Shown here in pieces: positions 28,986-62,159 of a DNA stretch of 64,000 nucleotides (positions are counted from its first letter, which is position 1; every line of letters starts with the position of its first letter). The notes beneath the pieces are model-generated. The model was given only the letters and a program-made list of their open reading frames with translations, was not told the origin of the DNA and searched no databases. Origin of the DNA: Escherichia coli (GTDB lineage: Bacteria > Pseudomonadota > Gammaproteobacteria > Enterobacterales > Enterobacteriaceae); the NCBI RefSeq assembly GCF_003334315.1, contig NZ_QOWR01000017.1; one strand, 5' to 3'. The position numbers and the translations under genes are program-made.

Positions 28986-29345
28986 GTGGCAGAAGAAACT
29001 ATATTCAGCAAAATTATTCGTCGTGAGATCCCCTCCGATATCGTCTACCAGGATGATCTGGTAACGGCGTTTCGCGATATTTCGCCGCAAGCGCCAACGC
29101 ATATTCTGATCATTCCGAATATCCTCATTCCGACTGTGAACGACGTCTCAGCTGAGCATGAGCAGGCGCTGGGACGCATGATCACCGTAGCGGCAAAAAT
29201 TGCTGAGCAAGAAGGTATTGCCGAAGATGGCTATCGTCTGATCATGAATACCAACCGCCATGGCGGACAAGAGGTTTACCACATCCATATGCACTTGTTG
29301 GGTGGCCGTCCGCTGGGACCAATGCTGGCGCATAAAGGTCTGTAA
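28986..29345 (+). CDS. hinT: Purine nucleoside phosphoramidase HinT (HIT family)
   Basis: ORF 28968..29345; start taken at GTG 28986 ([16 protein letters not shown]..., 119 aa) with aagga SD; HIT motif HIHMHLL. Confidence 0.92.
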
Positions 29346-35317: not shown

Positions 35318-35950
35318 TTATTTCACCAGTTCGGGCCATAAACGCAAAGTCGTTCCGGCAATCTGCATCAGTTTTTCCAGCGATGCACCTTCGCGTGCGC
35401 TGATCGACATCCCCTGAATAATACAATTAAGGAATTCTGCCAGATGTGTCACGTCACAGTGGGGCGGGATTTCCCCGCGCGCTTGTCGTTGACATAAAAA
35501 CTGCTGCAAAGTGCGCTCTTGCATCGCATGGCGTGATTTCAACGTATTGGCGATATCTCCTGAATCTGGGGAGAGGGTGGTGCAGTTGTTGATCATGAAG
35601 CAGCCTGCCGGGGTGTCTTTGCTGGTAAAGCAGTTGGCGATGGCAGCAAAATAGTCAGCCAGCGCAGACTCCACGCTTTTCTCTTCACAAAACAGCTGTG
35701 CTTCATGCTTAGCGGCAAAACGATCGATATAGCGGTCGAGAACGGCACGAAATAACCCCTCTTTGTTGGTAAATTCCGCGTATAGCGTGGGCGCTTTGGC
35801 TCCGGTCGCTTCGACGAGGTCCGCAAGAGAAGTCGCTTCATAACCGTGTTGCCAGAACAATTTCATGGCCTTATCAAGCGCGGCATCCCTGTCGAACACT
35901 TTTGGGCGGCCACGGCTTTTTTTTACACATTGTGTTGAGTCAGTTGCCAT
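35318..35950 (-). CDS. comR: TetR-family repressor ComR (YcfQ)
   Basis: ORF 35318..36028; start taken at MATDSTQCVKKSRGRPKVF (210 aa); TetR HTH. Confidence 0.9.
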   Translation of the reverse strand: MATDSTQCVKKSRGRPKVFDRDAALDKAMKLFWQHGYEATSLADLVEATGAKAPTLYAEFTNKEGLFRAVLDRYIDRFAAKHEAQLFCEEKSVESALADYFAAIANCFTSKDTPAGCFMINNCTTLSPDSGDIANTLKSRHAMQERTLQQFLCQRQARGEIPPHCDVTHLAEFLNCIIQGMSISAREGASLEKLMQIAGTTLRLWPELVK

Positions 35951-36106
35951 GATGCCGTTGTACCTGGTGACTGTGAATGAAAGGTTATTATAAAAATAAT
36001 CACCTCCGTTCACCAGTCCAGATCCCATAAAAATAATTGCTTTCTATTTAACTGAAATTTAAAGATTTTTAAATTAATTAATGATTGTTATAAAAAATAT
36101 CTTGTA

Positions 36107-36122
36107 TGTGATCCAGATCACA
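36107..36122. promoter_or_regulatory. Perfect CRP-type palindrome TGTGA-N6-TCACA in comR-bhsA intergenic region
   Basis: tgtgatccagatcaca read directly; 69 bp upstream of bhsA ATG; regulator identity is inferred. Confidence 0.5.
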
Positions 36123-36190
36123 TCTATCATTTAGTTATCGATCGTTAAGTAATTGCTTACGACGTCATTCATCTGCATAAGGCCACTATT

Positions 36191-36448
36191 ATGAAAAACG
36201 TAAAAACCCTCATCGCTGCGGCGATTTTAAGCTCCATGTCATTTGCCAGCTTTGCGGCTGTCGAAGTTCAGTCAACGCCAGAAGGCCAACAAAAAGTCGG
36301 TACAATCAGTGCTAACGCGGGGACAAATCTGGGATCGCTGGAAGAGCAGCTGGCGCAAAAAGCGGATGAGATGGGCGCAAAATCTTTCCGTATTACTTCT
36401 GTAACCGGTCCGAATACCCTCCATGGAACAGCAGTAATTTATAAATAA
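36191..36448 (+). CDS. bhsA: Multiple stress resistance protein BhsA (YcfR/ComC), YhcN family
   Basis: 85-aa ORF with signal peptide MKNVKTLIAAAILSSMSFASFA. Confidence 0.93.
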   Translation: MKNVKTLIAAAILSSMSFASFAAVEVQSTPEGQQKVGTISANAGTNLGSLEEQLAQKADEMGAKSFRITSVTGPNTLHGTAVIYK

Positions 36449-36487
36449 GCATTAACCCTCATTAATGCCTGCTACTGCTGATTTTTT

Positions 36488-36521
36488 CCCCGCGACATGC
36501 CGTGTCGCGGGGATTTTTTTT
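36488..36521 (+). terminator. Rho-independent terminator after bhsA
   Basis: ccccgcgacatgccgtgtcgcgggg followed by tttttttt. Confidence 0.85.
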
Positions 36522-61505: not shown

Positions 61506-62159
61506 TTAATCTGTCACTTCTCGCCATTCGCCATTGGCAAGATTATCCAAAGAGTAATCTCCCATCGCATAGCGAATCAGTCGCAGCGTAGGGAAACCAA
61601 CATGGGCGGTCATGCGGCGCACCTGGCGATTACGTCCTTCATATAAGGTGATCTTCAGCCAGCTGGTGGGAATACTTTTGCGTTCACGAATTGGTGGATT
61701 CCGCGGCCATAACCACGCGGGTTCGTCAACCAGCTCCGCGCCTGCGGGCAGGGTAGGGCCATCATTTAAGGTTACGCCATTGCGCAAGGCTTCAAGTGCG
61801 TCTTGTGTGGGAATACCTTCCACCTGCACATAATAGATTTTTCCGGTGCGTTTACCCGGCTGGGTTAAACGCGCCTGCAACGCGCCGTTATTGGTCAGCA
61901 CCAGCAACCCTTCGCTATCGCGGTCAAGGCGACCTGCTGCATAAACGCCCTGAACCGGGATGAATTCTTTTAATGTTTTGCGTCCGGCTTCATCGGTGAA
62001 CTGCGGAAGAACATCGTAGGGTTTATTGAAGAGGATCACACGCGTGGGCTGGTTTTCAGGTTTACGCCTGGTAGAACGTTGCGAGCTGAATCGCTTAACC
62101 TGGTGATTTCTAAAAGAAGTTTTTTGCATGGTATTTTCAGAGATTATGAATTGCCGCAT
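61506..62159 (-). CDS. rluE: 23S rRNA pseudouridine synthase RluE
   Basis: 217-aa ORF; RsuA-family motif ([14 protein letters not shown]). Confidence 0.92.

Follow-up and report, generated by a model that had tools for sequence, protein, structure and literature searches.

A catalogued, near-consensus CRP site in the predicted core promoter of Escherichia coli bhsA, and a separate 14-bp palindrome as candidate operator of ComR

Among the promoters repressed by cAMP-CRP, those of osmY and gal P2 (with its site at -36.5) carry the CRP site over the core promoter itself. In a different kind of system, that of the TetR/tetO, QacR and AcrR-type operators, the regulatory palindrome overlaps the start of a divergent target gene. 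In the CytR/CRP complexes, one repressor lies between a pair of CRP dimers, and CRP otherwise works as an activator. The promoter of bhsA (PbhsA), which faces the TetR-family gene comR, has something of each of them. As in the osmY and gal P2 type, CRP would sit over or between the -35 and -10 elements and compete with the polymerase, but at PbhsA a near-consensus site fills the 17-18 bp promoter spacer almost exactly (-30 to -15 from the predicted start), and there is no sign of a switch to another promoter that CRP would activate. The likeness to TetR-family operators belongs to a second palindrome, the 14-mer TTAWCGATCGWTAA, which lies at -2 to +12 with another copy upstream, beside a divergent TetR-family gene whose product is its presumed ligand; the CRP palindrome, unlike such operators, does not track the regulator gene across lineages. 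On the other hand, PbhsA resembles the CytR/CRP promoters in that a specific repressor (through candidate sites) and CRP are adjacent at one promoter, and departs from them in having one CRP site between two candidate repressor operators, itself placed to repress.

The closest described system is the same site in a closely related strain. A CRP ChIP-seq peak of enterotoxigenic E. coli (ETEC) H10407, number 1274886, carries TGTGATCTGGATCACA and was assigned to ycfQ/bhsA (Haycocks et al. 2015, PMC4287617), ycfQ being another name of comR. This sequence is the reverse complement of the site found in our window (the whole stretch of 64 kb of DNA that was analysed), so that both strains hold an identical 16-mer. 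In a study of regulatory loops drawn from EcoCyc/RegulonDB, bhsA is placed in a type-2 incoherent CRP feed-forward loop, a class in which CRP is the repressor and in which osmY is listed as well (PMC6121374). There, bhsA stands in the table of loops left after a cAMP dose-response microarray filter, its repressor sign being database-derived (PMC6121374). A secondary citation moreover reports a gel shift in which CRP bound the upstream region of ycfR, another name of bhsA, and the main text of the CRP SELEX study of Shimada (2011) makes no mention of the comR-bhsA locus. Between the catalogued ycfQ/bhsA site (PMC4287617; PMC6121374) and ours, the 16-mer, the locus, CRP as the binder and the repressor coding are the same, and there is no material difference. 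The CRP palindrome is an ordinary, already known feature, and it carries little weight as a discovery because CRP at comR/bhsA is already found in ChIP-seq tables and in EcoCyc/RegulonDB. Its interest lies in tying catabolite status to bhsA, a gene of biofilm formation, copper permeability and general stress. For work on ComR, there is a by-product in the candidate operator TTAWCGATCGWTAA, a pair of copies 56-57 bp apart that could be tracked into the Yersiniaceae.

The window is E. coli chromosomal DNA, and both genes are annotated as in Table 1 in 5,425 of 5,426 complete E. coli genomes. The product of comR (ycfQ) is described, in paraphrases found in the literature, as a copper-responsive repressor of bhsA (ycfR or comC). 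Between the two genes, a spacer of 240 bp (35951-36190) has a GC content of 22-35%, with dips to 22-24%, as against about 50% in the flanking genes; the divergent region is thus AT-rich, as the earlier note on this DNA had stated. Its only difference from MG1655 (U00096.3; window position equals the MG1655 position minus 1,132,882) is one SNP at 36159. Of 5,420 E. coli genomes, 5,261 (97%) carry, without a single difference, a core block of 55 bp that comprises the -35 element, the palindrome, the -10 element and the downstream 14-mer.

Table 1. Coordinates in the window of the genes, promoter elements and palindromes of the comR-bhsA region
Feature	Position	Strand	Description and basis
bhsA (ycfR/comC) CDS	36191..36448	+	85 aa, DUF1471 outer-membrane stress protein; the regulated gene
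comR (ycfQ) CDS	35318..35950	-	210 aa, TetR-family
CRP-binding core TGTGATCCAGATCACA	36107..36122	no strand	sequence, matrix score, ETEC ChIP-seq, conservation
bhsA -35, TTGTAT	36102..36107	+	conservation and geometry; adjoins or overlaps the CRP core at its first T
bhsA -10, TATCAT	36125..36130	+	begins 2 nt past the palindrome; 17-bp spacer
Predicted bhsA start A36137 (context TTAT)	36137	+	7 nt past the -10; 5' UTR of 54 nt
14-mer TTATCGA.TCGTTAA, downstream copy	36135..36148	no strand	-2 to +12, over the start; candidate primary ComR operator
14-mer, upstream copy TTAATGATTGTTAT	36078..36091	no strand	-59 to -46; candidate auxiliary ComR operator
Predicted comR promoter	35987..36015	-	-10 TATAAT at 35992..35987, -35 TGGTGA at 36015..36010; hexamers read by hand

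The palindrome TGTGATCCAGATCACA (36107-36122, plus strand) is an exact TGTGA-N6-TCACA match and the sole one in the 64-kb window. The match itself had been reported from the sequence, together with a centre some 76 bp upstream of the bhsA start codon, and both statements hold: the centre is at 36114.5, which is 76.5 bp upstream of the ATG at 36191, and the palindrome spans 84 to 69 bp upstream of it. The inverted repeat is longer than first noted, with 8-bp arms ATGTGATC and GATCACAT (36106-36123) around a non-symmetric CA centre, and the full 22-bp CRP site (36104-36125) agrees with the classical 22-mer consensus in 18 of its 22 positions. Chance would give 0.07 exact TGTGA-N6-TCACA matches per 64-kb window, and 7 of 100 dinucleotide shuffles of the window hold at least one; taken alone, this single-window statistic is only marginal, or suggestive. 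It is the conservation of the palindrome in the spacers of other species and of the core block among E. coli genomes, not the window count, that shows selection.

Scores were obtained with a symmetric CRP matrix built from 106 ETEC H10407 ChIP-seq CRP sites, with the bhsA site left out. On this matrix the palindrome reaches 21.2 of 21.81 bits, above all 106 ChIP sites (best 19.96, median 12.98), and the second-best match in the window reaches 12.0 bits. The comparison set consisted of 69 Enterobacteriaceae comR-bhsA spacers, plus three Klebsiella loci in which comR is 75% identical and the promoter architecture is the same; Klebsiella had been considered as a case of bhsA without ComR and was rejected as such, since comR is present. 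Orthologous sites occur in 69/69 spacers and score 12.7-21.2 bits (median 19.4). The bases of GTGA and TCAC are the same in 67-69 of the 69, central positions 6-9 vary, and conservation per position follows the information content of the CRP matrix (Spearman 0.64, p=0.008). The half-sites are CRP-type rather than FNR-type (TTGAT-N4-ATCAA), given that position 2, where T does not occur, is G in 67/69 spacers and that all 69 have C at position 15.

What identifies a cAMP-CRP site is therefore found here, namely TGTGA/TCACA pentamers 6 bp apart, a score reaching the range of bound sites and constraint on the positions that CRP contacts; occupancy is taken from the literature and refers to the ETEC H10407 peak, not to this strain. 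The earlier note had wavered between CRP and ComR as the protein recognizing the palindrome, and the answer is CRP: this reading is upheld by the near-maximal matrix score, the identical 16-mer of the ETEC ChIP-seq and the EcoCyc/RegulonDB coding. It had also pointed to published CRP ChIP data as a check, and these do show a peak at ycfQ/bhsA in ETEC H10407. Altogether, the palindrome is a genuine, very strong and already catalogued CRP site. One detail goes beyond the CRP matrix: the GA at 36116-36117 (positions 10-11, just before TCAC) is invariant in 69/69 spacers while the mirror positions vary, and it forms a GATC. The promoter-proximal half-site may also be read by something besides CRP, because this invariant GA is not demanded by the matrix.

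In the same ETEC data, CRP ChIP-seq peaks are seen at four DUF1471 promoters (yahN/yahO, ybiJ, ycfQ/bhsA and yjfY/rpsF). None of the DUF1471 paralogues yahO, ybiJ and yjfY, with their CRP peaks, has a ComR neighbour, and a DUF1471 gene of Klebsiella is reported as CRP-regulated in the same paper that cites the ycfR gel shift. Catabolite control seems to recur in this family of small proteins.

As read from conservation and geometry, the palindrome takes up the 17-18 bp between the hexamers of a conserved sigma-70 promoter (TTGTAT-17-TATCAT). Directly before the palindrome, the -35 element reads TTGTAT in Escherichia, nearly every other genus having TTGAC(G/C), and the -10 element, 1-2 nt past it, is TATCAT in 33 and TATGAT in 25 of the 69 spacers. 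According to a primer-extension study, the bhsA promoter uses a UpA primer and has T at both TSS-2 and TSS+1, and starts fall 6-10 nt after the -10. Together, UpA and the two T residues imply TTAT as the non-template start context. Four such contexts occur in the spacer and only A36137 has a proper -10; from the published start context we infer that this A is the bhsA start. With respect to it, the palindrome would extend over the positions given above, and its centre would be at -22.5. Another candidate for the mapped bhsA promoter, TTCACC-17-AATAAT at 36009-36037, came from a consensus scan and is also the computational pick of Shimada 2014. It was rejected because no TTAT start follows it and because its blocks fit better as the comR -35 and upstream region.

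Further into the 5' UTR, about 20 nt from the predicted start, a third partial half-site (T/A)(T/A)ACGAC at 36155-36162 is conserved across species. The sole spacer SNP with respect to MG1655 (A36159 instead of G) lies within it. This segment could pair weakly in the mRNA with the right half of the 14-mer; covariation between the two was searched for and none was found.

The 14-mer TTAWCGATCGWTAA is a palindrome unrelated to the CRP site, with consensus TTAWCGA.TCGWTAA, and its two copies, 57 bp apart, enclose the core promoter of bhsA. In 67 of 69 species the downstream copy shows no more than one mismatch, and its distance from the CRP centre is 26-27 bp in 69/69. In 48 of 57 spacers the upstream copy stands 30 bp before the CRP centre; the E. 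coli version, TTAATGATTGTTAT, is degenerate, with 3 mismatches, and the consensus form is TTAACGATCGTTAT. Even allowing 2 mismatches, the 14-mer is unique in the 64-kb window. As an alternative for the transcribed copy, a conserved RNA hairpin in the 5' UTR was considered and discarded (RNAalifold found 4 pairs at -0.65 kcal/mol, with no compensatory changes). In a review that paraphrases Mermod 2012, ComR is said to bind the comC promoter region, at a site about 60 bp upstream of comC, and to be released by copper; the downstream 14-mer occupies the interval from 56 to 43 bp before the bhsA ATG. A ChIP-exo study of ComR/YcfQ (Gao 2021) gave only three weak peaks, at cspA, metR and uxuA, and none at bhsA, and is therefore uninformative as to the operator; no mention of TTAWCGATCGWTAA as an operator was found in the searchable open literature.

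A representative search brought two more distant full-length ComR relatives, in Rahnella and in a locus referred to here as L090. The relative from Rahnella (Yersiniaceae) is 52% identical and divergent from four genes of 85 aa; three of these are BhsA-like (DUF1471) paralogues, and the one nearest to the TetR-family gene is without a Pfam match. At the promoter proximal to the TetR gene, two 14-mers 56 bp apart surround TTGCGC-17-TATCAT, whose spacer is without a CRP site. The second promoter keeps the 14-mer pair, its strong CRP site of 18.3 bits being located further upstream, and the third has a half-degenerate CRP-like sequence in the promoter spacer. The relative in L090 (49%) stands beside an AraC-type gene; here a distance of 57 bp separates two 14-mer-like palindromes, and a CRP site is absent. 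In 2000 shuffles of each of these distant spacers, a 14-mer pair arose in none (0/2000 for Rahnella and for L090). Moreover, the four proteins that have a 14-mer pair nearby share the recognition-helix segment TGAKAPTLYAEF unchanged, and relatives of about 40% identity have a different one. Those remote TetR relatives were tried as negative controls and rejected, as they are not clean negatives: AACGATCG-like cores are still present. An operator would be expected to co-occur with its regulator gene, and the CRP-type 16-mer does not, being absent from the promoter spacers of the ComR-proximal Rahnella promoter and of L090, both of which have the 14-mer pair. These comparisons point to the 14-mer pair as the probable ComR operator. 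Along the four promoters of this Rahnella locus (Rahnella selenatireducens, L089, 530-2500), the 14-mer pair is found at the first three and the upstream copy only at the fourth; the CRP site is absent from the first, about 76 bp upstream of the start at the second, half-degenerate in the spacer of the third and absent from the fourth.

Loss of bhsA offers a further comparison, which cannot discriminate the CRP motif from the ComR one because both are lost together. In four loci (L058, L062, L072 and L073, from two Enterobacter sp., Pseudescherichia vulneris and Escherichia sp. ESNIH1, at positions about 2170-2500), comR is found without bhsA, a deletion has removed all of the half of the spacer next to bhsA, and ldtC abuts comR. 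In these loci, ComR is left without an obvious local target.

The reading that we favour, with a probability of roughly 0.78, is that a high-affinity cAMP-CRP site in the spacer of PbhsA represses by occlusion, ComR most likely acting on the separate 14-mers. The cAMP-CRP dimer would cover about 22 bp (36104-36125), overlapping the -35 and the -10 of PbhsA, and with CRP over both hexamers RNA polymerase should be excluded. The position of the centre, at -22.5 between the hexamers, likewise suggests repression by occlusion rather than activation; it differs from the class I and class II activator positions (-41.5; -61.5, -72.5, -82.5 or -92.5). According to this mechanism, which we infer from the geometry, bhsA would be repressed at high cAMP and relieved when glucose is present. 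Such repression would operate alongside the copper- and stress-responsive repression by ComR and be separable from it, the putative operators allowing ComR to block, independently, the start site and perhaps the UP-element region as well. Full expression of bhsA would then need both a low occupancy by cAMP-CRP and the release of ComR.

For comR the expectation is different. Its predicted promoter lies in a conserved block, ATTATTTTTATAAT, which is kept in the four loci where bhsA and its promoter are deleted, and the CRP centre is about 134 bp upstream of the predicted comR start, a distance at which direct CRP control of comR from the palindrome seems unlikely. The loop classification of PMC6121374 implies that the databases do code direct CRP control of comR. 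The earlier suggestion that the palindrome might place bhsA or comR under catabolite control thus stands for bhsA, as probable repression from -22.5, and is unlikely to hold for comR, for which the position is poor.

A functionless palindrome arisen by chance in AT-rich DNA is hardly credible. The 7% of window shuffles with at least one exact match would leave room for it, but the site is kept in 69/69 spacers and the three Klebsiella loci with its CRP-specific positions invariant, it is occupied in ChIP-seq and 97% of E. coli genomes have it unchanged. That the palindrome is the operator of ComR, from which copper would free the repressor and so induce bhsA, was the other option raised at the outset, and several observations could have spoken for it: the repeat is a perfect one beside comR, it is conserved wherever comR and bhsA adjoin, TetR proteins usually bind palindromes between divergent genes, and the site about 60 bp upstream quoted in the review on Mermod 2012 is not far away. 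The same review figure is nonetheless closer to the 14-mer (56-43 bp) than to the palindrome (84-69 bp). Against this option there are also the near-maximal CRP score and in vivo CRP binding (in ETEC), a 14-mer pair that is equally or better conserved, the ComR-family genes of Rahnella and L090, which keep the 14-mer pair around a promoter spacer without a CRP-type palindrome, and the CRP peaks at three other DUF1471 paralogues without a ComR neighbour. Assignment of the palindrome to ComR is consequently very improbable and was not borne out, a different conserved 14-mer being the one that tracks ComR-family genes into distant lineages.

CRP could also be bound at this site and act as an activator, either of bhsA, through another promoter of class II located downstream, or of comR, from a far-upstream class I position. 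Most CRP sites activate, those of ETEC cluster near -40.5 and -92.5, ycfQ has been reported in the literature as up-regulated on glucose limitation, and a downstream block, CGTTAAGTWAAT, is conserved and has weak -10-like hexamers. A -10 suited to CRP at -41.5 was nevertheless looked for and none was found, the best candidates putting CRP at about -45 to -46; the TTAT start context fits A36137 only, the comR start is outside the usual class I positions and the database-derived coding is repression, all of which makes activation quite unlikely. Decidedly unlikely, too, is that CRP and ComR form one cooperative repression complex, in which the CRP bend at -22.5 would join ComR dimers on the 14-mers. 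Three palindromes at fixed spacing across genera (30 bp in 48/57 and 26-27 bp in 69/69) and the invariant GA at 36116-36117, unexplained by CRP alone, are what such a complex would lead one to expect. Promoter geometry, however, already sets the downstream spacing, E. coli itself has a degenerate upstream 14-mer (3 mismatches), and the 56-57 bp between 14-mers is kept in Rahnella and L090, where no CRP site separates the two copies, so this spacing is independent of CRP. A wider proposal joins these elements into a three-palindrome module, with CRP midway between ComR operators and repression by a cooperative bend, the 14-mer pair as a signature of an Enterobacterales ComR subfamily, and the invariant GATC of the promoter-proximal CRP half-site adding a layer such as Dam or SeqA sensitivity. 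We regard this proposal as speculative and unlikely; if true, it would combine carbon status with copper and envelope stress. The independent action of CRP by occlusion and of ComR through the 14-mers remains the reading preferred here.

Some minor observations concern the locus and its surroundings. In a genomic SELEX paper, the comR-bhsA spacer (35951-36190) is bound by the RpoD holoenzyme alone and H-NS binding is flagged; silencing of this AT-rich spacer by H-NS may be a further regulatory layer. The longest open reading frame of comR begins at an ATG at 36028 and would encode 236 aa, as compared with 210 aa from the conserved and annotated start at 35950; the extension would cross the predicted comR promoter, and orthologues give it no support. 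The MG1655-annotated small RNA bhsB (b4832) corresponds to window positions 36421-36520, overlapping the 3' end of bhsA and the terminator; a strong terminator-like hairpin is found downstream of bhsA at 36487-36513, and just past 36520 an indel in the T-run distinguishes the window from MG1655. Among the places matching the comR-bhsA stretch, five are on plasmids, and in E. coli OkiPb01684, an otherwise identical genome, an IS1A inserted in this stretch splits the match in two. The next-best matches to the CRP matrix in the window (24819-24834, 29135-29150, 12329-12344 and 62025-62040) score 11.3-12.0 bits, just under the ChIP-site median of 13.0. Finally, the 240-bp spacer contains 4 GATC (Dam) sites, where 0.67 would be expected from base composition, at 36116-36119, 36110-36113, 36140-36143 and 36021-36024, three of them inside the CRP and 14-mer palindromes.
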